Both the position numbers and the translations under genes were made by a program. DNA of 54,932 nucleotides. Origin: a virus (Duplodnaviria; Heunggongvirae; Uroviricota; Caudoviricetes). Location: the IMG/VR virus record IMGVR_UViG_2939147180_000006, positions 1 through 54,932 of that record. One strand, 5' to 3'. The notes beneath the pieces are model-generated. The model ran no database searches and was not told the origin of the DNA. It saw only the letters and a program-made list of their open reading frames with translations. Shown one piece after another: positions 1-54,932 of this stretch; position 1 is the stretch's first letter, and each line of letters begins with the position of its first letter.

Positions 1-68
1 ATGGATAACTTAATAAAAAATTCATTTATATTCAATATGTTATGCTTTGTTTTTGTTTTTGATTTATC

Positions 69-92
69 AATTTGGTCACAATTTGGTACACA
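69..92. repeat. 24-bp direct repeat copy (aatttggtcacaatttggtacaca); partner at 54897..54920; candidate att core or integrase arm-type site
   Basis: Read directly: 23/24 identity with the copy at the other window end; each built from two 11-12 bp AATTTGGT(C/A)AC sub-repeats. Confidence 0.4.
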
Positions 93-119
93 AAAAGAAA
101 CGAGGCGTAAGCCTCGTTT
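90..119 (-). terminator. Rho-independent terminator downstream of tail fiber gene
   Basis: Hairpin aaacgaggc-gtaa-gcctcgttt followed on minus strand by TTTCTTTTT, 30 nt beyond the stop at 150. Confidence 0.6.
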
Positions 120-149
120 CGCGCGGCGATGTTCTTCGCACATCACCTC

Positions 150-3100
150 TTATTCTTCGCTTCCGGTCAACTGACTGATAAGCGCTTCAAGTTTTGCTAT
201 CCGCTCATCCATTGCTGCAATGTTAGCTTTCAGGCTTGCGTTCTCCTCTTCCAGTTCGGTGACGCGGTTATCAGTTTCGCGTGCCACCTGGACAAGTAAA
301 CCAGTCACCGCCGCATAGTCAACATTAAGGTAACGTGTTTCTTCTCGTAGCTCGTTGCCGTCAACGGTCGGACCCTGCAATTCTTCACCGTAACGCGTAA
401 ACGATCCTACGGCTTCCGGTAGCGCCTCCATTACTTCCTGTGCAATAACGCCAGCATAAGGAAGGCCGTTTTCCTTGAGCGTGTAGGTGTACCCGTTCAT
501 TTTACGGATTGCTTTCGTCGCGTCTCTGATAACGAGAATATCGTCTTTAAGGTCGCGGTCTGATGACTGATTCAGCGTTGTGCAATTAATAGCGCCATTT
601 ACATCAAACAACTGGCCTGCTGACGTTTTTTGCGCATAAAACAGATACGCAGAAGACGTTCCAACCTCAAAAACGTTTTGTCGATCACTTGATCCCCAGA
701 CCCTGATGCTAACTGGTAGTTCTGCATTACCTGAATTAAGTAAAGCAAAACGATTGCCAGTCCCTGCTTGTTTTCTAATTACTAAATCGGCAGTTGAGTT
801 AACCTCATCTTTGTTGATGGTTAGCGCCTGCGCTGTAGCACCGTTAACAGTGCCACTTAGTAGTTGAACCGCTCCATCATCGCCATTTAACAGCACTTGA
901 GCGCTGCTTCTGTGGTTTTTCAGGAACAACATTTTGCCTGTGCTTTCTGATGTACCTACCGACCATGCCGAATTGGTTCCAGTGCTATCAACACCACGCA
1001 CAGTGCAATTCATGCTGCCATAATCTGACGTACTTCCAAGCACATCAATACGCCCGCCACCTAATTTTGATGGAGTCGTCGAGGTTAACGACCTGACGGT
1101 TACATCCTGATTTCTTCCTGAAACAACAATCTGACTCCATGCAGACCAGTTACCATTTTCACAATAGCGAACGTATATTTGTTTTGTGTCTGTGGCAACA
1201 AGGGTTTGCAAGTTTGTATAATCTGAATCCCTAACCTTACGAATTGACTCTACGCGAAGCAAAAAGTTACCGCCTACGCCGTCAGGCTTATTGGTAATGG
1301 CGTTACCACCAGCGGCATTTGTGCATTGATAATATTTAACTGAACCTTTATCCGCGAACTTAATGACAAGGTCGTTAAGATCTATAGCCTTGCCGTCAAT
1401 GGTTTCTGGATTGATAGATCCCGCCATACCTGCGTTAAATGTGGCAAGGCCAGAAAATGTTGTTTGACCGCCTACCGTTACCCCGCTATCTAGTATTGCT
1501 TGTGTAATTACTCTACTGTTTAGTTTCTGATCAGCGCTACCACCAAAAGCCAGATATCCACTATCGTCAATTCCAAGATATTTTTGTTCAATGTCGCTAA
1601 CCTTGAACCCAATGGATAAATTTTTAAATGCGTCAGTGCGCGTTAAAACCAATGGCGTGTGCTGTGCTCCGCTGATTTTTAACGTAGTATTAGTCGCGTC
1701 AGTTGATGTGTTTGCAAGCTCTGCGGTGGCTCCGCTGATTTTATACGTTACTTTCAAATCGCGGGCTTCTACCCTACCGTCGTGGCGAACAACAAAATCA
1801 CCACTTGATTCACCTTTTGCGTTTTTAGCCCTGATGCGAACTTCGCCAAGCGTATCAGTGTTTTGACCAGCATAGATTATGCCGCGCTCCTGGTTTTGGT
1901 CAGTGTAAAACCGCACAGCGGTAGCACCAGTTCCACCTGTTGCCCGTAGGTAGATCGAAGGAGTTTCTTTACTGATTGTTAAGTCTCCTGACATAACATC
2001 GCCGGATTTTTTCACCTGCGCATCGTTAGTTACGTTGCCAAGTCCAACGTCCGATTTCGACGGCTTATTTTGGGTTCCGTATAGCTCATTTACGGCATAA
2101 GTTGCAGTTTCAAGTTTGTTATCATTGCCAGCGAAAATCTTAACTCTGGCATTTTCGTATTCTATGTTGATCGCCGACCATGTATCACCGCACCGAGAGA
2201 ATATACCAGAACCGTGGGCGTAATGTGTCGCTGTGCTTCCGTTAGGCTTATCAGCACGCCAGAAATGACTACCTTTTGCACGCAGTGCTTTTAATAGCTC
2301 TGTATTGCTCATCATGCCGTTTGATGCCGGACCGCTGCCGCCAAGACCAAAAGCGCCTATAAGCATAGCATTAGAAAGGCCTAAGTCTGCCTTGCTGGGT
2401 TTGTTTACCTGGTCGTAAATCCTTGCTGCCGGGCTTTCAATAAATCCAGAAGGTGCGTCGGTTTGGGTAACATATCCTTCAGGAATGTATAATTCCGTGT
2501 TGCCAGTCTGCGCCAGCACCGCGACTTTTGTTTCTTTAATAAAAGCTCGCTGGTAGCACCAGACCTCGATATAGCCGTCACCTTTAACCAGGCCGTAACG
2601 CATTTGATTATCATTGGGAAGGTTTGGTGAACCGAGTCGGCGAACACTTAAAAATTTAGATATATTTTCACTGGTTACTTCGCCTGTATCGTTAAGACCT
2701 CGAGCGGAGATCTCTATAAAGTCAATATTCCCGTAACTTGAACCGTAGTTACCGCCATTTGTAACCATTAGCGTTAAGTGGCAGCTTACTGACTTTGGAT
2801 CGCTAAGTTTAGCGATCTTAACGTAAGCGCCATTATTGCTAGTTTCAACAGGCCAAGCACATTGGACCATTGGGCTGGTAAGCCTTCCCATTTGATTAAG
2901 ATATTCTTGCGCCCTGTTCTCTGATGTTTTGGCGTTGGTTTCGCTTGTCTTCGCGTTGGTTTCGCTTGTCTTCGCGTTGGTTTCTGATGTTTTCGCTGCT
3001 GTGGCAGATTTTGCAGCCGCTGTTTTTGACGCTTCTGCTGCGTTTTTGTCAGATTCTGTTTTTTGAGCGTTGGCGGTTGATTTGGCTGTTTCTGCGCGAA

Positions 3101-3476
3101 TGTTGGCAAGAAGCTGATCCATCTGACCATCACCGCCGAAATCTTCCCACCACTCTACAGCGGCGGCGATTTCTGTTTCCCTGCCCTGGTAGTAACGCAG
3201 GGTTTCAGCTACGTCCTGAGCAAGCCCATCAACTGAGATCGAGTCAGATAGTAGAATACTGAATTTTGTCCCAGCAGGGATGGCTGGGTTAGCCGCTGGT
3301 GTTACTGACAGTTCAGTGCCGCTCTTGATTTCCGTAATGGTAAAGATCTGTACAGGATTGCCAACAGCAATGAGCGTGCAACCTACACGAATGAGAGAAA
3401 GTGGCGCGGAAAAGTTTGTGCCCGTGCCTGTAACAGTATTGCCACTAATGGCAATTGTTCCAGTTGTGTAAATCAT
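150..3476 (-). CDS. Distal tail fiber protein with C-terminal peptidase-S74-type intramolecular chaperone domain
   Basis: 1108-aa ORF after J; C-terminal segment ...NQSSDRDLKDDILVIRDA... plus coiled coil typical of self-cleaving chaperone domains; AKTSETN tandem repeats near N-terminus; GGAGT RBS. Confidence 0.7.
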   Translation of the reverse strand: MIYTTGTIAISGNTVTGTGTNFSAPLSLIRVGCTLIAVGNPVQIFTITEIKSGTELSVTPAANPAIPAGTKFSILLSDSISVDGLAQDVAETLRYYQGRETEIAAAVEWWEDFGGDGQMDQLLANIRAETAKSTANAQKTESDKNAAEASKTAAAKSATAAKTSETNAKTSETNAKTSETNAKTSENRAQEYLNQMGRLTSPMVQCAWPVETSNNGAYVKIAKLSDPKSVSCHLTLMVTNGGNYGSSYGNIDFIEISARGLNDTGEVTSENISKFLSVRRLGSPNLPNDNQMRYGLVKGDGYIEVWCYQRAFIKETKVAVLAQTGNTELYIPEGYVTQTDAPSGFIESPAARIYDQVNKPSKADLGLSNAMLIGAFGLGGSGPASNGMMSNTELLKALRAKGSHFWRADKPNGSTATHYAHGSGIFSRCGDTWSAINIEYENARVKIFAGNDNKLETATYAVNELYGTQNKPSKSDVGLGNVTNDAQVKKSGDVMSGDLTISKETPSIYLRATGGTGATAVRFYTDQNQERGIIYAGQNTDTLGEVRIRAKNAKGESSGDFVVRHDGRVEARDLKVTYKISGATAELANTSTDATNTTLKISGAQHTPLVLTRTDAFKNLSIGFKVSDIEQKYLGIDDSGYLAFGGSADQKLNSRVITQAILDSGVTVGGQTTFSGLATFNAGMAGSINPETIDGKAIDLNDLVIKFADKGSVKYYQCTNAAGGNAITNKPDGVGGNFLLRVESIRKVRDSDYTNLQTLVATDTKQIYVRYCENGNWSAWSQIVVSGRNQDVTVRSLTSTTPSKLGGGRIDVLGSTSDYGSMNCTVRGVDSTGTNSAWSVGTSESTGKMLFLKNHRSSAQVLLNGDDGAVQLLSGTVNGATAQALTINKDEVNSTADLVIRKQAGTGNRFALLNSGNAELPVSIRVWGSSDRQNVFEVGTSSAYLFYAQKTSAGQLFDVNGAINCTTLNQSSDRDLKDDILVIRDATKAIRKMNGYTYTLKENGLPYAGVIAQEVMEALPEAVGSFTRYGEELQGPTVDGNELREETRYLNVDYAAVTGLLVQVARETDNRVTELEEENASLKANIAAMDERIAKLEALISQLTGSEE
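2919..3000. repeat. About 3.5 copies of a 21-bp tandem repeat inside the tail fiber gene (encodes AKTSETN repeats)
   Basis: Read directly: gcgttggtttcgcttgtcttc repeated head-to-tail. Confidence 0.7.
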
Positions 3477-3560
3477 CGCAATGACTCCATTTTGTTAATT
3501 AACGATATTATTTTAACGCTTTGTCATTGCATGTTCTATTTTTGTGTATACATTATGTAT

Positions 3561-3582
3561 AAAAAACCCCGCGACTGCGGGG
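3561..3582 (-). terminator. Rho-independent terminator immediately after J
   Basis: Minus strand GC hairpin ccccgc-agtc-gcgggg followed by TTTTTT, 7 nt after J stop. Confidence 0.6.
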
Positions 3583-3588
3583 TTGGTG

Positions 3589-6500
3589 TTAGTCGTGTGA
3601 TTCTTCCCATTTATCCCACGTACCGTTACAACGTCCAATTAATATAGTGGGGCAACATAACTGTATTTGTGTTATATCAACCGTGGTTGGCGGCGTATAT
3701 ATCTCGATGACAACATCAACAATCTGATCTGTTACACTGTCTCTACCACAAACAAACATACCGTTGGATTGTTCATTGCCAAATTTTTTCGCATCAAGCA
3801 CTTTCACTCCGTTGATAAATGCGTTTATGTACGAACTGGATAGTAACCCTGTTAATCTTGCCTGGAATAATACGTTTTTATAGGTTCCTTCTGTTGTAGA
3901 GTCAATAAAGCGATAACAAAATCTTGCTACCCTGTAAGTAGTATTAGGTACTTTGCTACTATCAGGGAAAACGTGCATTGCTACAATGTCACCAATGAAT
4001 CTGTTGGCGCGTACAGTTCCTGTAAATGTACCGCTGTCCGCATGTATTTCACCCCTTACAACAACGTTGTTAAATTCTGATGCGCCGCTTTGTGTTATCC
4101 TCCAACCACTGGAACCAGGGACGAAGTTTGCTGATTTAATTTCATTAACAATTTTAGCCATAGTAATGGAGGCATCTGCAATTTTAGCCGTCCCTATTGA
4201 CGCATCCTTAATAAACGCCTCTTTCACATACATTGCGCCGTTAGTGACATAGAATGGCGATGTATATGAACCGTTTGCTGCGGTCATTAACACGAAACGG
4301 TCAACAAGGAAAATACACTGCGACTGAAAGTTAGTGCCGTCACCAGTAAGGCCAAGCGACATACCTGCTGCGTATTTTACGCCATTGCTATCTGTGGCGA
4401 GCTTGATTGAATATGTCGCATCAACATTACCCTTAAAGTCGGTTAATGCTTTCGATGTCGTCTCTATTGCCGTCTTATTCCCGTTAACGGTCACTGTTAA
4501 CTGATCAATTTTCGTTGACAACGCCTCGTCTGCCGTAGCCATTGTCTGCGACCATTCTGTAATACTTGCGTTTACTGATTCGAAAGACGCTGAGATCTGG
4601 CTAAATTTTTCTGCGCTTGATGTTTCATGCGTAGAGAGCGCCGTTGACACTTCAGATACTTTTGAGTTGATTGTGCTGGTAAGCGATGCGCTAAGGCCGC
4701 TTATTGCGTCTGCGCGTGCTTTTGTTTCATCGGCGATGGCTTTGTCCATCCTGGTGACGTTGCTTGTCACTTTATTATCAAGCGTGCTGACACTTGCGCT
4801 AACTTCGCTGATAGCTTGTCCTCTGGCGCTTGTTTCGTCAGCAATTGCCTGATCAAGGCGGTTAACGCTTGCTTCGGTTTTCTTATCAAGGTCGGTGATC
4901 GATGCGCTTACCCCGCTAATGGCTTCCGCTGTCGCTTTTTTCTCTTCAGCAATAACGTTGTCAATACGGTCAATTTGCGCGTTTGTTTCTCTGCGGCCTT
5001 TCTTGTATTGGGCCGTAAGAGTAACTCGCGTGTTGGTTTGAGCGATTGAGTTATTGATAAGTGCAATAGATGCGTTTTGCAGGCTTGCTTTTGCCTGATT
5101 TATTTCGTCGCTGTTTTTGCCAACATTATTTTCAACAGCGCCAAGATTTGCGCTGAGGCCTGATATTGCTTGTGCACGGGCGCTTGATTCATCGGCAATT
5201 GCCTGATCAAGACGTTTAACGCTGGCGTTTGTGTTGTTCTCAAGCGTTGTTAAGTCTGCTTTAACCTCTGTTATTGCGTCGCTTCTTGCCTTCGTTTCGT
5301 CTGATATTGCTTTATCAAGGCGGGAAACGCTGGCGTCAGTTTTCTTGTCAAGGGTGTCTATCGACGCCTTCACGCCGCTGATGGCCTGTGCGCGTGCGCT
5401 GGCCTCGTCAGCGATGGCCTGGTCGAGTCTGTTCACCTCTGATTCAGTGTTGCTTTCAAGCGTGCTGATGCTTGCATTAACGCTGCTGATAGCGTCAGTG
5501 CGCGCCTTAGTTTCGTCTGCAATCGCTTTATCAAGGCGGCTAACGTTACTTGTAACCTTGCCGTCGAGTGCGGAAATTGACGCATTCACACCGTTGATGG
5601 CTTCGGTTCTCGCGCTTGTTTCATCCGCAATGGCTTTATCAAGGCGGCTTATGCTTGAATCGGTTTTCTTGTCGAGCGCTGATACTGAGGCATTTACCCC
5701 GCTAATAGCTTCGCTGCGTGCGCTTGTTTCGTCAGCAATAGCTTTATCCAGGCGTTTAACGCTGGCGTCAGTTCTCTTATCAAGTACCGAGATACTTGCG
5801 TTAACGTCACTGACCGCCTGTGTGCGGGCGTTCGTTTCATCTGCAATAGCCTGATCAAGCCTATTGACGCTGGCATCCGTTTTCTTGTCGAGATTGCTTA
5901 TTGAGGCGTTCACACCGTTAATAGCTTCAGCGCGGGCACTAGCCTCGTCAGCCACTGCGCGTTCCACACTGGAGATCTGACCTTTAAGGTTGGAATCCAT
6001 CGCGTTCATTTCTGCCGTGATGGTTTTCAGTGATTCAGCCGTTGCTTTTTTCTCTTCAGCGATAACGTTGTCAATACGGTCAATTTCCGCTTTCGTTTCC
6101 GTTCTGCCTTTTTTGTACTGGGCGGTAAGGGTAACGCGCGTGTTTGTCTGTGCAAGCGAGTTGTTGATAAGCGCCAATGACGCGTTTTGCAGGCTTGCTT
6201 TTGCTTGCTCCAGTTCACTGCCAACTTTTTCGCTGGACACTTCTAATAGGTCAATCCTGGACTCATGCTGACCAATATCATCGGCGTTTTCCTTAACTTT
6301 TTTGTAAAGATCTTCCGTTTCTTTTTTAAGTGTATCGGTGTCAGCTTTTATTGTTCCTGTTTCTGTGATCAGGTTGTCAGTGTCAGTTCTTAAATCTTCG
6401 GTTATGTTGGTCAGGTTGTCGGTTTCAGTTCTTAAATCGTCAGTTATGTTGGTCAGGTTATCAGTTGCAGTTTTGAGGTTGTCGGTCGCTGTTTTTAGTT

Positions 6501-9030
6501 CATTTGTAGCATTTTCAATAACATCCGTGCGATCGCCAAGATCTTTGATGTCACCAATCATTTCCTTGAACTGTTCTGAGTTCATCACGTCTTTGGTGAC
6601 GTAATCGCTGATTTCATCAAAATTCTCTGTCGGCTTACCTGATGCCTCCACAAAGTCAGACACGCCAAAAGCATTGCGTGTGCGCACATAAACGTAATAG
6701 GTGTGGCCCGTGTTCATGCCGCCAAACGTCCACTGATGACCACGCCCAGTATATTGTGCCTTAGTGGTTACTGATGCCGGATCGGTGATCTGCGTTTCAC
6801 CTGAGTAATAAAACTCGTAACTTGTATCAGTGGTAAGCGTTGTTCTGCTGATTGGGTAAACTGTAGCCTGAAATACACCGGGAACCCAATTAACTCCTAC
6901 CGGGGCCGCTGGTGCGCCAATAACCAGATCCACAATGCTTTCCGCGCCCTTCATGCCTGTGTCATTTCTGCCACGAATGCCTAATGAGTAATTGCCAGCA
7001 TCAATACCATAAAAATCATAACTGTAATTCGTAGTCTCGTAGCTTTTAACTACGGCCCCATCTGAATTATATACGCGGATTTCAAAGGTCAGGCGATGAG
7101 TTGTCGTCAGTGTTTCCCATGTTGCGCGGCATTGAACTGTTTCAGATCCAATGTTTAACACCTTCAGGTTTTCAATGTTCGGCACGCGGAAGTGATTAAG
7201 TGTGTCGTTGTTGACCTCAAAGATTGCGCCAGTATCTACTACAGCCTGTTTGTGAGGGTCATGCTGTGATGCCTCTATAGTGTACACGCTGTTATTTTCT
7301 GTTTCTGCTACACTGGTGATTCTACACAATACTGGTTTTGCTGCGCTAGTTGACACCGCAAATACAGTACCGTTACGAATCCATGCCGGGGCTGATGCAA
7401 GGGTAATTTTATTTCCGCTAACTCCGGTGATCTGGTGTTTTTTAAATTTGCCATCACTATCAAGCAAGCTAATGGTGTCGCCAGGGGCGATATATTCAGA
7501 ATCAACCTTATCGACAGTGATAACCCTGCCATTGTTTGCCACGATACGACCGCCTAGACGAGCGCCAGAGCGGTTATTGTCGAGTATCTCGATAATATCA
7601 CCGGGGGTGAAGTGAATTGCGTCACGGGCCATTTTAAACGTGAATTTAGACGGCTCGCGTTTTGCTGTTTCTATCAGCCATTTGCCAGCGCGGTACGCTT
7701 GCCCGCGTGACGTGCATCCGAACGCCTCCAACGTGGTTTCGTTATAACCATCGCGGGCGATTAGTTCATCATCCGCCACGTATTCTTTTGATTGCTCCCA
7801 GCCGTTTTCCGGGTCAGTCCATGATACGATCACGGCGTTGTAACACTCTGCAAGCGGAAGACTTGAGCGAGTAAACGCGCCATCAACGACGTTTGCGTTT
7901 GTGATGGTGGCAATTGGATCCTGTGGCGCATCAATCATCACGGTAAGGCGTTGCCCGTCCCATAACGCGATACCACGGAACATACCTGCGATGTTATCCA
8001 GTAGGTCGCGGGCGCTCATTTGCTCCGTAATGTAAGCGTTGAGAGTCATGCGAGGTTCAAGGCCACCATAGCCATCATCAACCAACTGATCGCAGTATTG
8101 AGAAAGCACATACAAAGCGCCATCATCAACATCAATGTAACCAGCATGTCGAGCAAGCCCGAAGCGCTCGTTTTTAACCAGATACCGGAAAATCCACGCA
8201 GGGTTATTGGTGTACGCTTTTTTGAATCCACCAAGCCATAAACCCGAATATGTGCGCGTTTCTGTGTTGTAGTTATCAGGAACATCAACAATCAGGCCGC
8301 GAAGGTGATAGGTACGGGTGGGTGTATCAGTATACTGATCATGGTCAATTACAGCGCCAGCTACAGCGGTATGAGGATAAGACAGATTATCATCTATTAT
8401 TTCGCTGTAACTACTCCACCGCGTATCATTTCGCAATAGATCGCTGTTGCTGTCTGCTGTTATGCGACGCACGCGAATATCAAACGGTTTTTCATTGGGC
8501 GCGTCTATGACATGAGCTTCCAGATACTCACCACTCTGTTTGCCTGGCCCAATAGTAATAATTTTAATTTGCGACCACGTAGAAGATGATGACGGTTTAA
8601 CATCAACCATCAACATAACGGACGTATTGTATTGATTGCCCTTATCATCTGACTGAACGAGAGCATCAACACCAAGATTCAACCTGACGCGGGTAACGTT
8701 TGGATCTGAAACAGTCCTGATTATTGGTGTGTCGTGAGTTACCTTTGCGTTGACAATAACGGTTGATTCGATGGCATTAAAACCATTAATCGGCGATTGG
8801 TCAGCCGTGCCGTTGCGCCAGGCTATACTAATCCCCGGGATTGATGTATTCCCGTTTGCGTCAGTAACAGGCGTGCCATTAAGCATCACATCATTTAGTG
8901 GCGCTTTCTGGTTTACAGGACCGTATATTGGCCCTTCGCTGAGAATATCTAAAACACGATAAAACTGTTTATGATACAGGTTATCGTTTAATAATACTGG
9001 TGTTTTGGCTTTGCCGCCGCCGCTACTCAT
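3589..9030 (-). CDS. J: Tail tip / host specificity protein J homolog with expanded central coiled-coil repeat region
   Basis: 1813 aa; N-terminal and core segments (WSSYSEIID, YHLRGLIVDVPDNY..YSGLW, NPAWIFRYL) resemble lambda J; position after I/K/L. Confidence 0.85.
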   Translation of the reverse strand: MSSGGGKAKTPVLLNDNLYHKQFYRVLDILSEGPIYGPVNQKAPLNDVMLNGTPVTDANGNTSIPGISIAWRNGTADQSPINGFNAIESTVIVNAKVTHDTPIIRTVSDPNVTRVRLNLGVDALVQSDDKGNQYNTSVMLMVDVKPSSSSTWSQIKIITIGPGKQSGEYLEAHVIDAPNEKPFDIRVRRITADSNSDLLRNDTRWSSYSEIIDDNLSYPHTAVAGAVIDHDQYTDTPTRTYHLRGLIVDVPDNYNTETRTYSGLWLGGFKKAYTNNPAWIFRYLVKNERFGLARHAGYIDVDDGALYVLSQYCDQLVDDGYGGLEPRMTLNAYITEQMSARDLLDNIAGMFRGIALWDGQRLTVMIDAPQDPIATITNANVVDGAFTRSSLPLAECYNAVIVSWTDPENGWEQSKEYVADDELIARDGYNETTLEAFGCTSRGQAYRAGKWLIETAKREPSKFTFKMARDAIHFTPGDIIEILDNNRSGARLGGRIVANNGRVITVDKVDSEYIAPGDTISLLDSDGKFKKHQITGVSGNKITLASAPAWIRNGTVFAVSTSAAKPVLCRITSVAETENNSVYTIEASQHDPHKQAVVDTGAIFEVNNDTLNHFRVPNIENLKVLNIGSETVQCRATWETLTTTHRLTFEIRVYNSDGAVVKSYETTNYSYDFYGIDAGNYSLGIRGRNDTGMKGAESIVDLVIGAPAAPVGVNWVPGVFQATVYPISRTTLTTDTSYEFYYSGETQITDPASVTTKAQYTGRGHQWTFGGMNTGHTYYVYVRTRNAFGVSDFVEASGKPTENFDEISDYVTKDVMNSEQFKEMIGDIKDLGDRTDVIENATNELKTATDNLKTATDNLTNITDDLRTETDNLTNITEDLRTDTDNLITETGTIKADTDTLKKETEDLYKKVKENADDIGQHESRIDLLEVSSEKVGSELEQAKASLQNASLALINNSLAQTNTRVTLTAQYKKGRTETKAEIDRIDNVIAEEKKATAESLKTITAEMNAMDSNLKGQISSVERAVADEASARAEAINGVNASISNLDKKTDASVNRLDQAIADETNARTQAVSDVNASISVLDKRTDASVKRLDKAIADETSARSEAISGVNASVSALDKKTDSSISRLDKAIADETSARTEAINGVNASISALDGKVTSNVSRLDKAIADETKARTDAISSVNASISTLESNTESEVNRLDQAIADEASARAQAISGVKASIDTLDKKTDASVSRLDKAISDETKARSDAITEVKADLTTLENNTNASVKRLDQAIADESSARAQAISGLSANLGAVENNVGKNSDEINQAKASLQNASIALINNSIAQTNTRVTLTAQYKKGRRETNAQIDRIDNVIAEEKKATAEAISGVSASITDLDKKTEASVNRLDQAIADETSARGQAISEVSASVSTLDNKVTSNVTRMDKAIADETKARADAISGLSASLTSTINSKVSEVSTALSTHETSSAEKFSQISASFESVNASITEWSQTMATADEALSTKIDQLTVTVNGNKTAIETTSKALTDFKGNVDATYSIKLATDSNGVKYAAGMSLGLTGDGTNFQSQCIFLVDRFVLMTAANGSYTSPFYVTNGAMYVKEAFIKDASIGTAKIADASITMAKIVNEIKSANFVPGSSGWRITQSGASEFNNVVVRGEIHADSGTFTGTVRANRFIGDIVAMHVFPDSSKVPNTTYRVARFCYRFIDSTTEGTYKNVLFQARLTGLLSSSYINAFINGVKVLDAKKFGNEQSNGMFVCGRDSVTDQIVDVVIEIYTPPTTVDITQIQLCCPTILIGRCNGTWDKWEESHD
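4690..5960. repeat. About 10 copies of a ~108-bp (36-aa) coding repeat inside J, plus a ~180-bp duplication (approx 4890-5070 vs 6040-6220)
   Basis: Protein repeat AIADETSARxxAIxGVNASISxLDKKTDASVxRLDK iterated; DNA lines visibly periodic; boundaries approximate. Confidence 0.7.
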
Positions 9031-10955: not shown

Positions 10956-11083
10956 TTTTTCACCTTGTCATTTTGTGATCGCCGTCACGATAAATCATAC
11001 CAAAACGGTTGATCGCGATTTTTACAATATGTATATTGTACTCAAAAGGAAGCATGGTTAACAAAATGGCGCGGAGGTGTGAA

Positions 11084-12883: not shown

Positions 12884-13053
12884 GATTCCCCCTATAAGTT
12901 ACATATTGCATACATCTTTACGCGCTTCTACGCGAAAAATGAGAACTTTGTCACAAGAATTATACCCAGTTTACGAAATGGCTTCACACATGACGTGCCA
13001 AGTTGTATATAGAAATCAAGAAGAGAGAGCAGTACAAGCAAAGGAGGTCAAAT

Positions 13054-16200: not shown

Positions 16201-16241
16201 TATACAAAATGGCTTCATTTCAACGAGTACATTTTGTATAA
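16201..16241. promoter_or_regulatory. Inverted-repeat motif TATACAAAATGG-N17-CATTTTGTATAA (candidate operator/promoter element)
   Basis: Read directly; the same half-site recurs in several other intergenic regions. Confidence 0.4.
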
Positions 16242-31876: not shown

Positions 31877-31940
31877 ATATATAACAAAACGGCACTGCCG
31901 AAACAATGCCATTTTGTATACATTGTGATAAAGATCACAT
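31877..31940. promoter_or_regulatory. Regulatory region: inverted motif TATATAACAAAACGG-N16-CCATTTTGTATA plus CRP-consensus palindrome TGTGATAAAGATCACA
   Basis: Read directly; TGTGA-N6-TCACA at 31925..31940 matches the CRP core consensus. Confidence 0.45.
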
Positions 31941-35105: not shown

Positions 35106-35298
35106 TATCTTTATTCCGTCCGTAAATATGTACTGGCTCAACTGGTACGGCTGGCAATTCACCATCATTTAACGCGCTTGCCATACCCAATATTAATCGT
35201 GCTTCCGCACCAGTGACTTTCTTACACCATGCACCGCCAGTTTTATCTTCGAACAAGATAACAGCAAACTGATCGTTTATTTCCAGCTTATCCATCAT
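35092..35298 (-). CDS. Hypothetical protein (68 aa)
   Basis: Track ORF; 4-nt overlap with the Q-like gene. Confidence 0.35.
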   Translation of the reverse strand: MMDKLEINDQFAVILFEDKTGGAWCKKVTGAEARLILGMASALNDGELPAVPVEPVHIYGRNKDNENN

Positions 35299-36017
35299 TC
35301 ACCCCGCGTCACTCTTTTAATTTCGTTATCTGCCAGCGCCTCTTCTTTGAACAATTCAGCAATGGCGTCTTCATAGAAAGCCCGGTACTTTTTCCACCAT
35401 GTTGATCGGCTTACCGGAAAAACAAGCTGATTAACCGCCTGCCGTACAAGATCTACAGGGAAACGCGAGTACCCGCGCCCGCCGCAATGCTGGCACGTTT
35501 TGAACACTGGCATTTCCGCCGCTTCACTGGCTGCTTTATCCGGTACTTCGCCACGGCCCTTGCATTGTTTACAATGATTGCGAACTGTCCCATGCCCCTT
35601 GCATTTCTTACAAAGGTGTTTTTCTCCGTAGTCGTCAAACGTAAATTTATATCCGCCGCACTCCATACAAGTTTTTTCCGTCGCGGCACTCTGGCAATAA
35701 TCCCGAAACGCGAAAACGGCAACAAGAATAATGAGATCATTGCGTTTGGCCTCGTCCAGTTCCATAACGTATTCATAATCTTTTGCCATAGCCCTTAAAC
35801 GCTCTGTAAGCAAAACTACGGCCTTATGTTTTTCGGCTTGTGATAGTTCCATCTTCCCTAAAAAAGCGCTGTAACCAAGCTCTACGCGCGATTGCGCCAT
35901 GCCTGCTGCAGTTAGTGCATCCGTAGTATTAAGAGCATCCGGGGACGTGCCCCGGCTTTCATCTGACAAACGAGGTGATTTTGGGAAGTGGAATTTCAGA
36001 ATTGATTCCAGATTCAT
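35295..36017 (-). CDS. Putative late antiterminator Q-family protein with DnaJ-like CxxCxGxG zinc-finger repeats
   Basis: 240 aa directly downstream of ninG and rusA (canonical Q position); repeats CMECGGY, CKKCKGHG, CKQCKGRG, CQHCGGRG; family assignment from memory, unverified. Confidence 0.45.
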   Translation of the reverse strand: MNLESILKFHFPKSPRLSDESRGTSPDALNTTDALTAAGMAQSRVELGYSAFLGKMELSQAEKHKAVVLLTERLRAMAKDYEYVMELDEAKRNDLIILVAVFAFRDYCQSAATEKTCMECGGYKFTFDDYGEKHLCKKCKGHGTVRNHCKQCKGRGEVPDKAASEAAEMPVFKTCQHCGGRGYSRFPVDLVRQAVNQLVFPVSRSTWWKKYRAFYEDAIAELFKEEALADNEIKRVTRGE

Positions 36018-37473: not shown

Positions 37474-37552
37474 TATACAAAATGGATACGTCATAACAAG
37501 CTGAAAAGCGCCATTATGTGATCCGTATCACACAATGACGCCATTTTGTAAA
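37474..37552. promoter_or_regulatory. Regulatory region: TATACAAAATGG and CCATTTTGTAAA in inverted orientation flanking CRP-consensus palindrome TGTGATCCGTATCACA
   Basis: Read directly; TGTGA-N6-TCACA at 37517..37532; intergenic between C5-MTase-like gene and ninG block. Confidence 0.45.
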
Positions 37553-44795: not shown

Positions 44796-45267
44796 GATCT
44801 GATCTCCTTATATCCTTGATGATACTTAATAAAAAATCATCTTCGTTAATTGCCGCACTTCCAGCGGCTGACCAGATTGTTAAAGAATGGCTTAACATCT
44901 TTCAACTAATCCCGCAATCATCGCCGTTTCCGGTGTGACCCTGCTCACTCCAAGCAAGCTGACTTGTCGCCTTGCGTGCGGTTTCGTGGGGGATGTAACG
45001 CTTTAAACACCCCATGCGCCTTGTTATCAGTGCCGCTTTCGGTCCCCCATCGGGGAGTTACTCCACGGTTGACAAGGTGTTAAGCCTGATTTTTAAAGTG
45101 CCAGGAAGGTGCTTTTTTGTTTACTGCCTCCTTCCTTTGATTCGCAATATACGCCCTGTGATATGTCGAGTCAATCCATTTTGTATACTTTTTAAAAAAA
45201 TTTTATATCTTATTGATATTTAAATGATAAAACTGTTTTTTTGTTTACGTTTTGGCGTTTTTGGTGG

Positions 45268-45298: not shown

Positions 45299-45946
45299 TT
45301 ATGGCAGGTTTACGATCTTCGCATCCACTACCACGCCTATGATTTTAGATTCTGGATTCATAGGGATTGGCGGATACAGCGGATTGAGAGAACGTAAAAG
45401 CCTTTGACCTCCATCAATAACAAGCTGTTTAAACGTAGGAGTTTGCCCTTCCTCCAGTTGGGCTATAACCAGTTTTCCGTCAATAGCTGGCGCGTGCGGA
45501 TCGACAAGTATCATCGTCCCCGCTGGTATACTCAATCCTTGCGGCGCGTTCATTGATTCTCCTTTAGCCACCAGCCAATAACTATCATCTGAACAAATAA
45601 CGCTAGTTGTAACGTGTGGTAATGTTGATCGCCTTGCATCTTCCATATTGTTTACTGCATCCTTCCAGTCAACAACCGGGTAACTGCCTAAATCACGCGG
45701 TGGCGCTCCCGGTAACGTGTTAGAAACAGAATCATCTATGACCATCCCATCATGTGTGACAGTGAATTGCCGACGCCCAAGCGCCCGCATAATCCGCGCA
45801 ATATCTTCAAGATTTGGCTCACGGCGACCGTTCAGCCAGTGCGACAAGCCGCCTTTTGTTATCCCCATGAGATCAGCCAGTGAATCCTGACTCATGCCCT
45901 GCGCCCGCATGAGTTGTTTTGCCAAGTCATACCATTTTGTTTTCAT
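45299..45946 (-). CDS. cI: CI/C2-type prophage repressor (HTH_XRE plus S24 LexA-like peptidase)
   Basis: 215 aa; N-terminal HTH QDSLADLMGITKGGLSHWLNG; C-terminal GESM...FKQL Ser/Lys dyad; C-terminus KIIGVVVDAKIVNLP as in P22 C2. Confidence 0.85.
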   Translation of the reverse strand: MKTKWYDLAKQLMRAQGMSQDSLADLMGITKGGLSHWLNGRREPNLEDIARIMRALGRRQFTVTHDGMVIDDSVSNTLPGAPPRDLGSYPVVDWKDAVNNMEDARRSTLPHVTTSVICSDDSYWLVAKGESMNAPQGLSIPAGTMILVDPHAPAIDGKLVIAQLEEGQTPTFKQLVIDGGQRLLRSLNPLYPPIPMNPESKIIGVVVDAKIVNLP

Positions 45947-45949
45947 GTC

Positions 45950-46100
45950 GCTACCCTATAAGCTAAAAAAGTTTGATGCAAGTCACAAAATGTATTTTTC
46001 AATCCTTGACCTGTTAACGCCATTCTGTAAACTTGCAGACAAGGTAAGTCCATACTTGCAAGGATGCAAGAAAAAAGATAATGGAAAGCACAAAAGGAAC
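45950..46100. promoter_or_regulatory. Immunity-region operator/promoter region (OR/PR/PRM equivalent) with CTTGCA/TGCAAG palindromic half-sites
   Basis: Divergent intergenic region between repressor and rightward operon; repeated CTTGcagaCAAG, aCTTGCAAGg, gaTGCAAG; TTGACC -35-like hexamer. Confidence 0.4.
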
Positions 46101-53521: not shown

Positions 53522-53739
53522 TGGATAAGGTCGGGACAATTCTTATTAATCGTGAGCAAGTGCAAAAAATGTTGGGCGGGCTTAGTAAGTCCGCCTTTTT
53601 TAAGCTCGTTAAGAAATGGAAAGATGCCGGAACTCCTTTCCCTGAACCAGTTAAGGGGATGCCAGCGTTAAAGCGCGGCGGATCTCTTTACCGTTATCAG
53701 GATGTCATTTCATTTTGTAAATCAATGGGCTTCATGTAG
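53521..53739 (+). CDS. xis: AlpA-family excisionase / transcriptional regulator
   Basis: 72 aa; HTH LINREQVQKMLGGLSKSAFFKLVKK followed by FPEPVK...RYQDV, AlpA-like; convergent with and overlapping the integrase 3' end. Confidence 0.5.
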   Translation: MDKVGTILINREQVQKMLGGLSKSAFFKLVKKWKDAGTPFPEPVKGMPALKRGGSLYRYQDVISFCKSMGFM

Positions 53740-54896
53740 TAATCAGCCAGTTTATTCATCGCCTCGATTTGCTCCCTCACATAATCATACTGATCATATA
53801 TAGCCATCATTCCCGCCAGTTTATGACCTAAGACCTTTTCGGCTACGTGCGGCGCAATGCCAAGCGCTGAAAGGTTTGTCCTTACAGTGCGGCGTAGATC
53901 GTGACACGACCACGGCTCGCCGCCCATCCTTAGCATCAAATCCCTTGCGGCTGTTTTCGGTACGCTCCTGTCCACCGCTTCATCCCTTCCAGAAAGCACT
54001 GGAACGAAGATAAAATTAAAGCCGTGCAAATCCATAGCTTCACGCAATAAATCAACGCTAACGGCGGATAAACCGCGTTTAAACTCATTTCTGTTCTTAC
54101 TCAATGCGCCAGGCACGGTCCACACGCAGTTATCAAGATCGAAATGTTCGCGCCTTGAGTTTGTCAGTTCGCTTGTTCTGCATCCGGTGAATATAATCAG
54201 CTTCATCAATATCTGGTTCAGTCGCGCCATTTTTGAACTGTCTATAAGGCTGATTAGATGGTGAATCTCTTGTATTGACAAAACGCGTTTCCTTTGCGCA
54301 GGGTTTTTGCCTACGTCTTTCACGCGTAGCAATGATATGTCGTCACGCTCCACGCGGCGGCGTCGCATGGCATATTTTATCACCGCCTTCATCCTGTTTA
54401 AGACTATCCCTGCCTGAACGGGCGCGCCACCATTAGCTACCTTTCTAAAAATCCCCTCCCACATTATGGAGTCCATATCATCGACGATATAGCTACCGCA
54501 TGGTCTGACAATATGCTTACTTAGCATCGCCTCGACTTGCTTATAGTTGACCATGTTTCTTGCCTGCGGTGATTCCATATACTCCCTTACAATATCCTCA
54601 ACCGTTGCCCGTGTCGTAACGCGGGAAATGTGCATTCTTTTTGCTACCGATGGATCTCGACCTGAGTTTAGCACTTCCTTATGCTCCGCCACCGCCGCCC
54701 GCGCTTCTTTGAGTGTTATTTCTCCGTATGTGCCGATCTTCATCCGTCGAGGCTTGCCGTTGAATCGGTAGCGATACTGGAAAGATATAACTCCGCGCGG
54801 GCTTATCCTGGCAGACAATCCGCCCGCGTCCGGTACTTCTTCCGGGCCGTCGTATGGCTTGCCGTGGATGTTTCTTAATTTGGTATCTGTAAGCAT
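53697..54896 (-). CDS. int: Tyrosine integrase (P4-like, DUF4102-type arm-binding N-terminus)
   Basis: Typical start MLTDTKLRN at 54896 (ORF is open to 54932); catalytic-domain segments incl. HDLRRT and LGH...Y; N-terminal arm-binding domain. Confidence 0.85.
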   Translation of the reverse strand: MLTDTKLRNIHGKPYDGPEEVPDAGGLSARISPRGVISFQYRYRFNGKPRRMKIGTYGEITLKEARAAVAEHKEVLNSGRDPSVAKRMHISRVTTRATVEDIVREYMESPQARNMVNYKQVEAMLSKHIVRPCGSYIVDDMDSIMWEGIFRKVANGGAPVQAGIVLNRMKAVIKYAMRRRRVERDDISLLRVKDVGKNPAQRKRVLSIQEIHHLISLIDSSKMARLNQILMKLIIFTGCRTSELTNSRREHFDLDNCVWTVPGALSKNRNEFKRGLSAVSVDLLREAMDLHGFNFIFVPVLSGRDEAVDRSVPKTAARDLMLRMGGEPWSCHDLRRTVRTNLSALGIAPHVAEKVLGHKLAGMMAIYDQYDYVREQIEAMNKLADYYMKPIDLQNEMTS

Positions 54897-54920
54897 AATT
54901 TGGTCACTATTTGGTACACA
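54897..54920. repeat. 24-bp direct repeat copy (aatttggtcactatttggtacaca), partner of 69..92; a third partial copy sits at 54878..54888
   Basis: Read directly; immediately upstream of the probable integrase start. Confidence 0.4.
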
Positions 54921-54932
54921 CATTCTACGCAT

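Follow-up and report, generated by a model that had tools for sequence, protein, structure and literature searches.

The last late gene of a temperate coliphage raises the question of how its side tail fibre is put together, and how the gene is transcribed when intrinsic terminators stand on both of its sides. This gene lies at one end of IMG/VR virus record IMGVR_UViG_2939147180_000006, a stretch of 54,932 bp (the window) that is a complete genome of the mEpimmI (mEp021-like) group of temperate coliphages, in reversed orientation relative to the GenBank records. A preliminary description of the locus had proposed a distal fibre gene insulated from the upstream tail gene J, ending in a self-cleaving chaperone, exchanged as a cassette and possibly varied in length by slippage at a 21-bp repeat. 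We find that the open reading frame (ORF) very probably encodes an ordinary mosaic side tail fibre of a mEpimmI temperate siphophage, comprised of an anchor, a shaft resembling that of T5 pb1, a different tip and an S74 chaperone, and most likely expressed from a weak promoter of its own together with read-through dependent on the Q antiterminator.

Identity and modular make-up of the fibre

The gene and the segments of its product are as follows.

150..3476, minus strand: side tail fibre gene, an ORF of 1108 aa with an ATG start; stop codon at 150-152
3129..3476, minus strand: N-terminal anchor, residues 1-116, specific to mEpimmI tails and conserved across mEpimmI fibres
2913..2996, minus strand: four heptads (AKTSETN three times, then AKTSENR), residues 161-188, corresponding to the 21-bp repeat
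1032..3047, minus strand: shaft like T5 pb1 (LtfA), residues 144-815, from BLASTP, PHROG and nucleotide matches
564..1031, minus strand: distal tip, residues 816-971, presumed to be receptor-binding from its position; the T5 pb1 tip is unrelated
153..563, minus strand: Peptidase_S74 intramolecular chaperone (Pfam), residues 972-1108, with a C-terminal coiled coil and a predicted cleavage before Ser972

The encoded protein is 88% identical in amino acids, over its full length, to E. coli prophage proteins that RefSeq names 'pyocin knob domain-containing S74 family peptidase', and it matches 34 PHROG families, 23 of the 25 listed belonging to the tail category and being mostly tail fibre proteins; the NCBIfam search returned no family. 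Together with the homology to T5 pb1, these matches bear out the earlier naming of the gene as a tail fibre. The qualifier 'distal' is imprecise, in that the ORF encodes the whole fibre including the N-terminus that attaches to the tail. The gene also has the hallmarks of the mEpimmI side tail fibre, as typified by the gp82 locus of mEp021: it carries the conserved anchor and follows J as the last late gene before attP/int, with no ORF between it and the window end and with int following on the circular genome. The homologue mEp021 gp82 is, per its annotation, a virion structural protein identified by mass spectrometry (PMC11893012). Among the ORFs of the window no tail fibre assembly gene follows the fibre, and a separate one would not be needed with the S74 chaperone built into the protein.

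The surroundings of the gene place it firmly in this group, which was described in 2025 and whose members reportedly matched lambdoid phages in frequency within a human faecal collection (PMC11893012). The structural region of the window (3700-28000) is 86-90% identical in nucleotides, over 75-90% of its length, to mEp021, mEp010, mEp013, mEp044, mEp515, mEp554 and MagusPhagus. An exact-sequence search for the fibre in public assemblies gave no match, and the nearest E. coli genomes are about 89% identical. The window additionally codes for a lambda-CI-like repressor (45299-45946), an N-like protein, a Q antiterminator (35295-36017; PF03589, E=1e-29) and a tyrosine integrase.

Comparison with other mEpimmI fibres delineates the modules from which the protein would be built, four in number and each exchangeable. 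Residues 1-116 are the tail-attachment module: of the six mEpimmI phage fibres compared, five share 85-89% identity with it and mEp021 shares 63%, even where the remainder of the fibre differs, and 263 relatives of this anchor occur in IMG/VR. The anchor would dock on the mEpimmI tail tip. In the named phages and prophages the conserved segment of about 110 aa is joined to fibres of 449, 655, 841, 849, 854, 1108, 1136 and 1160 aa, and in the protein database its distal partners contain PF13884, PF03781, PF13385, PF07484, PF25670, or PF21882 with PF03406, making at least six kinds of distal part among anchor-bearing relatives. The locus is thus a site of cassette exchange, as had been proposed. 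Certain E. coli prophages have the same anchor fused to a SUMF1/FGE-sulfatase-type domain (PF03781) or a Laminin_G_3 lectin domain (PF13385), an unusual combination for a tail fibre.

Distal to the anchor, residues 144-815 are 57% identical to residues 142-819 of T5 pb1 by BLASTP, residues 128-823 match phrog_24369 (profile length 1396, E=1.5e-279), and positions 1953-3029 are 84% identical in nucleotides to T5 ltf. Past residue 815 BLASTP finds no match to T5 pb1, and the PDB sequence searches returned no match to 4UW7 or 4UW8; nothing in the fibre resembles the 'bullet' receptor-binding domain of T5 pb1 (residues 970-1263), which binds polymannose O-antigen, and therefore the T5 specificity cannot be transferred to this fibre. 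Instead, the tip is 74% identical to that of Ayreon Stf, and from residue 834-923 to the end the protein matches, at 60-79%, the C-termini of mEpimmI fibres that are otherwise different. The shaft would hence carry a different tip, predicted to bind a surface receptor. An AF2 model of residues 800-1108, built from a 46-sequence alignment, gave a mean pLDDT of 60.9 and a pTM of 0.30 for tip and chaperone, a quality that is probably low because the fibre is an obligate trimer. A Foldseek search of the PDB with this low-confidence tip model found nothing at E<=0.001.

The N-terminal part of the protein also raises the question of whether the fibre could be an enzymatic depolymerase of capsule or lipopolysaccharide (LPS) rather than a simple binding fibre, since residues 3-234 match the N-terminus of the Klebsiella phage capsule depolymerases 7LZJ/7VYV (E~5e-36). 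However, this match is confined to the anchor and heptad region and leaves out the catalytic beta-helix, neither the Pfam nor the NCBIfam searches of the fibre recovered a lyase or hydrolase family, and the body of the protein is homologous to the non-enzymatic shaft of T5 pb1. The fold search adds no significant match either, its best and non-significant hits, from the low-confidence model, being chains of the T4 gp34 fibre. The comparison with depolymerases that had been suggested for the central domain accordingly yields an N-terminal match in the PDB without the beta-helix or lyase/hydrolase of an enzymatic tailspike, and we regard such an activity as highly improbable.

The C-terminal 137 residues form the S74 domain that had been recognized earlier. 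Over residues 972-1023 the PF13884 profile scores 47.2 bits (cutoff 22, E=2.8e-12), and the Ser/Lys dyad lies at the start of the domain, Ser972 and Lys977 standing five residues apart as S972-DRDL-K977. The segment SSDRDLK (971-977) aligns with SSDRRIK of phage S16 gp37 (6F45), and Ser972 and Lys977 align with the T1263-S1264...K1269 stretch of T5 pb1. In T5, Ser1264 and Lys1269 have been shown to perform the cleavage, and receptor binding is unmasked once the chaperone is gone (PMC4690869). Ser972 and Lys977 do not vary among 46 homologues, and all six mEpimmI fibres tested end in Peptidase_S74. In the model the domain contains a long helix (residues 255-305 of the fragment, pLDDT mostly 59-84), and sequence searches gave coiled-coil matches. 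By analogy with T5, the chaperone would aid folding of the trimer and then cut itself off before Ser972 by means of the Ser972/Lys977 dyad; the self-cleavage thus predicted would leave a mature fibre of about 971 residues.

The four-heptad block

The in-frame 21-bp repeat encoding AKTSETN is indeed present: Tandem Repeats Finder reports 3.5 copies of period 21 at 2924-2996, and in the reading frame these are four heptads. The more demanding proposal was that the repeat is a contingency locus, at which slipped-strand mispairing varies the length of the fibre, and it can point to two adjacent units that are identical in DNA over 42 bp and in frame. To weigh it, the block can be compared across nine orthologous genes, namely those of the window, three E. 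coli prophages, three IMG/VR phages, Ayreon and T5. In every one of them A(Q/K)EYL is immediately preceded by four 21-bp units, no more and no fewer, usually in the pattern AKTSETN-AKxSExA-AKTSET(N/K)-AKTSEN(R/K), and the final four-heptad block recurs in other homologues with lambda-type N-termini and in further IMG/VR relatives. There is no copy-number polymorphism of the unit among the nine aligned orthologues, which span T5, a lambdoid phage and mEpimmI prophages, or among the further homologues. What distinguishes the window is that unit 2 is a base-for-base copy of unit 3, found in the window only, with E. coli str. 190 differing from this state by two bases; unit 2 thus appears to have been overwritten by unit 3 in a unit conversion, and this is why the array looks more tandem in the window. 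Homologues differ by substitutions and this one conversion, and two 21-bp units make a poor substrate for slippage. As the sample shows no length polymorphism, slippage at this repeat is not supported, T5 pb1 and Ayreon Stf included, and we consider a contingency locus most unlikely.

A different role for the block is suggested by where homology begins. The similarity to Ayreon and T5 starts at residues 144-146, just upstream of the heptads, and the shared heptads are therefore likely to be a recombination linker. The Ala/Lys/Ser/Thr-rich heptad segment closes with four AK-SE heptads, a fixed block that T5 pb1 and lambda-type Stf proteins also have. This block would probably have two roles, as a trimeric helical connector and as a stretch of homology at which recombination can occur.

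The J-fibre junction and transcription of the fibre gene

The elements that bear on transcription of the fibre gene are given below.

3589..9030, minus strand: tip attachment protein J, 1813 aa, the upstream neighbour (Pfam Phage_Tail_Tip, FNIII-A_GpJ, Ig_J, Phage-tail_3)
3559..3584, minus strand: intrinsic terminator after J, 4 nt past the J stop (stem 3565-3584, T-run T6 at 3561-3566)
3547..3561, minus strand: 15-bp dyad TATACAtaaTGTATA abutting the T-run of the J terminator, a candidate regulator-binding site
3510..3515, minus strand: TAAAAT, candidate -10 of a fibre promoter, without a TG extension; TAGAAC at the -35 position
3494..3503, minus strand: perfect 10-bp palindrome GTTAATTAAC, at the predicted start of the fibre transcript
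88..120, minus strand: intrinsic terminator after the fibre gene, 29 nt past its stop (stem 97-120, U-tract 88-96)

Terminators stand on both sides of the gene, within a few bases of where they had first been placed, and each has the make-up of a Rho-independent terminator, a GC-rich hairpin with a U-tract just past a stop codon. The J-side hairpin has a folding energy of -14.8 kcal/mol (z=-4.7) and the fibre-side hairpin with TTTCTTTTT one of -17 to -18 kcal/mol (z=-3.2). A terminator consensus scan of the window gave no more sites than shuffled sequence (10 against 11.2), and the assignment of these two therefore rests on their fold strength, their position past stop codons and their conservation or annotation in relatives. 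The fibre-side terminator is annotated at the same place in mEp010, mEp013, mEp044 and mEp554; lying between the fibre gene and attP/int, it would shield these or, in the prophage, host genes. Type-C relatives have a homologous CCCCGC...GCGGGG hairpin after J, between the convergent J and lpp genes. Both terminators are conserved features of the family and not special switches. The sole match of an Rfam search of positions 1-4000 was Trp_leader over the J terminator, below threshold at 24.6 bits against 41, which we rejected as a generic resemblance to a terminator.

The gap from the J stop to the fibre ATG measures 112 bp, and its 88 bp past the hairpin are as AT-rich as had been remarked, with 26% GC against 46% for the window. 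All of the annotated relatives, seven phages and three E. coli prophages, have one or two genes on the opposite strand between J and the fibre, encoding either an 82-aa lipoprotein (lpp) or the lipoprotein and a DUF6453 protein. Such lipoproteins, which occur in 40 of 48 genomes, have been shown experimentally to mediate superinfection exclusion (PMC11893012), and in most relatives the J hairpin separates J from these convergent exclusion genes. About 30 of the 35 IMG/VR relatives likewise have opposite-strand genes there. The window, as against L001-L010, has no lipoprotein or DUF6453 gene, and hence no such moron, at 3477-3588. Four of the 35 IMG/VR relatives (L021, L022, L025 and L030) share this lpp-less arrangement: their gaps are 108-113 bp long, and their terminators run directly into a TATAC...GTA.AC element. 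The junction in the window thus represents a known minority arrangement, not a new one, and it is because the window belongs to this minority that the J hairpin abuts the fibre upstream region.

Several features of this upstream region make a promoter for the fibre itself plausible. In all 36 genomes a TA(G/A/T)AAT hexamer stands 39 nt ahead of the ATG (36 nt in one of them), taking the form of an extended -10, TGGTAGAAT, TGGTAAAAT or TGGTATAAT, in 31. One relative with unrelated upstream sequence keeps a perfect TGGTATAAT at the same place, and in the lpp-less class the spacing of dyad and TAAAAT is constant though the sequence between them has diverged. Further, with opposite-strand genes between J and the fibre in most relatives, a promoter that restarts transcription makes sense. 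Closer to the gene, the GTTAATTAAC palindrome, which resembles an ArcA-type box, recurs upstream of the fibre in 35 of the 36 genomes; L044, where the upstream region is unrelated, does not have it. GGAG stands at 3485-3488 ahead of the ATG.

Does it follow that the fibre gene is insulated, such that late transcription ends at the J terminator and the fibre depends solely on its own promoter, its dosage uncoupled from that of J? The strength of the J terminator, with its U6, the fixed position of the -10 in every genome and its frequent TG extension, the opposite-strand genes of the annotated and IMG/VR relatives, and the similar dyad-plus-(-10) layouts that precede TMP, M and L after other opposite-strand islands would all agree with this. 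Lambda-type Q proteins acting at a late leader with its terminator, however, make RNA polymerase ignore intrinsic terminators, and the phage has both a Q antiterminator and, upstream of a putative holin gene, a TATAAT-leader-hairpin cassette like lambda pR'-tR'. In the HK97-like lambdoid phages mEp390, HK75, HK446 and LAU1, whose fibres have a homologous N-terminus, a terminator lies about 16 nt before the fibre ATG with only a ribosome-binding site (RBS) in between; a promoter would not fit into this space, so that expression of those fibres must depend on read-through. Ayreon has terminators on both sides of lom, before stf. A terminator before a side-fibre gene is therefore widespread and compatible with read-through or antitermination, and the flanking terminators do not prove insulation. 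Thus, of the insulated unit proposed earlier, the bracketing terminators and a conserved -10 stand, whereas the insulation does not follow from the terminators in a phage that encodes Q; with a candidate promoter in the window that has neither TG nor a usable -35, full insulation seems rather unlikely to us.

At the other extreme, the gap might hold no working promoter at all, the conserved block being the remnant of a divergent lpp promoter together with a 5' untranslated region and RBS, and the terminator acting as an attenuator that sets the stoichiometry of fibre to J. Such pure read-through has a precedent in the terminator-RBS-ATG order of the group-2 loci, and it would accommodate both the weakness of the promoter in the window and the concentration of conservation largely in the last 30 nt, the RBS region. 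It sits poorly with the maintained dyad/TAAAAT spacing of the lpp-less class and with the perfect TGGTATAAT in the relative whose upstream sequence is otherwise unrelated, and in most relatives polymerase would need to cross 0.4-1.3 kb of antisense genes. A hand scan of the relatives for a divergent lpp promoter gave no convincing site. We consider pure read-through possible but not probable. Expression of the fibre would most likely draw on two routes that probably both contribute: late transcription that passes the J terminator under Q antitermination, and a weak, conserved promoter belonging to the fibre itself, with its TAAAAT (3510-3515) behind the dyad.

The dyad that abuts the J terminator recurs elsewhere in the genome, as do palindromes resembling the CRP consensus.

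3547-3561, 11021-11035, 16226-16240 (and 16201-16215), about 12995-13010, 31909-31920, 37474-37488, 45173-45187, 45985-45999: copies of the dyad
45173: dyad at a strong TTGACT-17-TATATT promoter downstream of the repressor gene
45985: dyad in front of the repressor gene
11021: dyad before L, with TGGTATGAT
16226: dyad before the tape-measure gene (TMP)
31924-31939 and 37517-37532 (perfect), 10974-10989, 12940-12955 and 45972-45987 (one mismatch): TGTGA-N6-TCACA

A recurrent TATACA motif had been noted in the gap. The bare hexamer is not significantly enriched in the window (38 copies against 26.9+/-5.9, with 7 of 100 shuffles reaching 38), whereas the 15-bp dyad that contains it, TATACAwwwTGTATA, is: there are 10 matches at <=3 mismatches against 1.7 expected, a number reached in none of 100 shuffles. 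ATACAAAATGK, one mismatch allowed, is found 15 times where 3.6 are expected, and ACAAAATGG and CATTTTGTA are the most frequent 9-mers of the genome. All lpp-less relatives retain an equivalent of the 3547-3561 dyad, as does mEp021 (TATACAtttTGTATA). The dyad sites in general are conserved in mEp021, and across 40 IMG/VR relatives the copy upstream of L shows essentially no variation, most of these relatives also keeping TGGTATGAT. At the intergenic sites 45173, 45985, 11021 and 16226 the dyad is followed by 18 nt, 3 nt and a -10-like hexamer; at M and the fibre a spacer of 27-28 nt adds one helical turn. The dyad centre lies about 41 bp upstream of the start of the -10-like hexamer at the PR-like early, repressor-gene, L and TMP promoters and at about -51 at M and the fibre. 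It is precisely at TMP, M, L and the fibre that the forward strand resumes behind an island of opposite-strand genes. In the searches run, the dyad was the only one common to the two immunity-region promoters, the PL/PRM side having been inspected by eye.

The size and symmetry of the dyad fit a repressor of the lambda CI type, which the phage encodes, and so make it a candidate CI operator. On a wider reading, the tail module would not be one Q-dependent late operon; it would be a series of separately promoted segments, the fibre last, each gated by the immunity repressor or a Cro-like partner. We offer this as a tentative and rather doubtful proposal. TGTGA-N6-TCACA, enriched at 7 copies against 1.6 expected, is a candidate site for CRP. 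Its perfect copies lie in the late leader (between TATAAT and the tR'-like hairpin, upstream of the putative holin gene) and near nutR2, and at L and M a copy lies just past the -10 element, with arms that do not vary and a spacer that does. We rejected these palindromes as boxB-like hairpins of nut sites, as the arms are invariant and the spacer varies without consistent extension of the stem; the published nut boxB loops, moreover, are A-rich (PMC11893012). If the operator reading were true, host cAMP would be a further input, through the CRP-consensus boxes located at the late leader and just past the -10 elements of L and M. In the literature we found nothing on promoters or operators of the mEp021 group beyond PMC11893012. 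The dyad before each tail-gene segment and at the early promoters thus poses a testable regulatory question for mEpimmI phages, and is a lead rather than a result.

Some points weigh against our overall reading of the fibre gene: 1) The candidate promoter in the window is weak, has no TG, matches the -35 consensus at three of six positions and was not called by the promoter scan of the window. 2) The conserved upstream block could partly reflect an ancestral divergent lpp promoter, though it persists in lpp-less genomes. 3) The roles of the heptads as connector and in recombination are read from their conservation and from the point at which the Ayreon/T5 homology starts. 4) The receptor-binding role of the tip is presumed from its position and by analogy, and the tip model has a pLDDT of 61.

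Variation at the junction reaches into J itself. The last ~120 aa of J (3589-3950) are of a type absent from the named mEpimmI phages and, among the IMG/VR relatives compared, found only in L025 and L030, both of them lpp-less. The best full-length phage matches are rV5-like tail proteins, at about 35% identity. Together these observations suggest a different outer-membrane receptor for the receptor-binding end of J. The variable block thus extends beyond the fibre and takes in the J C-terminus. Within J, positions 4600-6500 hold a long array of coiled-coil-like repeats of about 29 aa (…AIADETSAR..AISGVNASIS.LDKKTDASV.RLD…) with many internal DNA repeats, which corresponds to the variable region 950-1475 (PMC11893012).

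At the other end of the gene, past the fibre terminator, positions 1-96 have 21% GC, with two direct repeats of ACCAAATTG at 68-93. The integrase gene (53697-54932) starts exactly at the window end, so that on the circular genome the fibre, its terminator, attP and int are co-directional. Junctions of the E. coli prophages fall at about position 48 (zntB/ydaN site) or before position 1 (abgT site).

Relation to known fibres

The picture that emerges is a modular map of a host-range determinant: an anchor, a fixed heptad connector, a T5-like shaft, a tip of unassigned specificity and a self-cleaving chaperone. The boundaries of exchange, at residues ~110-116, ~145-200 and ~830-920, are natural splice points for host-range engineering, and they explain how virulent and temperate phages come to exchange parts of T5-type fibres. 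The slippage switch, and insulation deduced from hairpins alone, can be set aside as attractive but unsupported.

The closest counterparts are the fibres of E. coli mEpimmI-type prophages, WP_130624228.1 and WP_086611540.1, which are 1108 aa long, about 88% identical to that of the window and endowed with the same four heptads. Their genes are likewise the last before the prophage end and have the same downstream terminator; these prophages differ from the window in two respects, the extended -10 TGGTAGAAT and the opposite-strand lpp, or lpp and DUF6453, that separate J from the fibre gene. The fibres of mEp021 (gp82), mEp010, mEp013, mEp044, mEp515, mEp554 and MagusPhagus share the anchor (63-89%), the locus, the Peptidase_S74 end, the upstream region and the downstream terminator. 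Their central parts, however, are unrelated, in proteins of 449-1160 aa, and the T5-like shaft is confined to the fibre class of the window.

Outside the group, Ayreon Stf is 74% identical over residues 273-1252 to residues 146-1108 of the fibre; it too has AKTSETN-type heptads and a gene flanked by terminators, but its N-terminus is of the lambda type (PF08400) in place of the mEpimmI anchor. T5 pb1/LtfA (PDB 4UW7, 4UW8; PMC4690869) has a shaft 57% identical over about 670 residues, an identical four-heptad block before AKEYL/AQEYL, and a C-terminal S74 chaperone of about 135 residues with an equally spaced Ser/Lys dyad. It differs in its N-terminus, by which T5 attaches to the collar, and in its polymannose-binding bullet tip, and the phage of the window is temperate with a genome of about 55 kb. 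Finally, the chaperones of the endosialidase/K1F tailspikes, founding members of Peptidase S74, belong to the same domain family, with the same C-terminal position and Ser-x4-Lys dyad; there the chaperone sits on a sialidase tailspike, whereas in the window it sits on a fibre.

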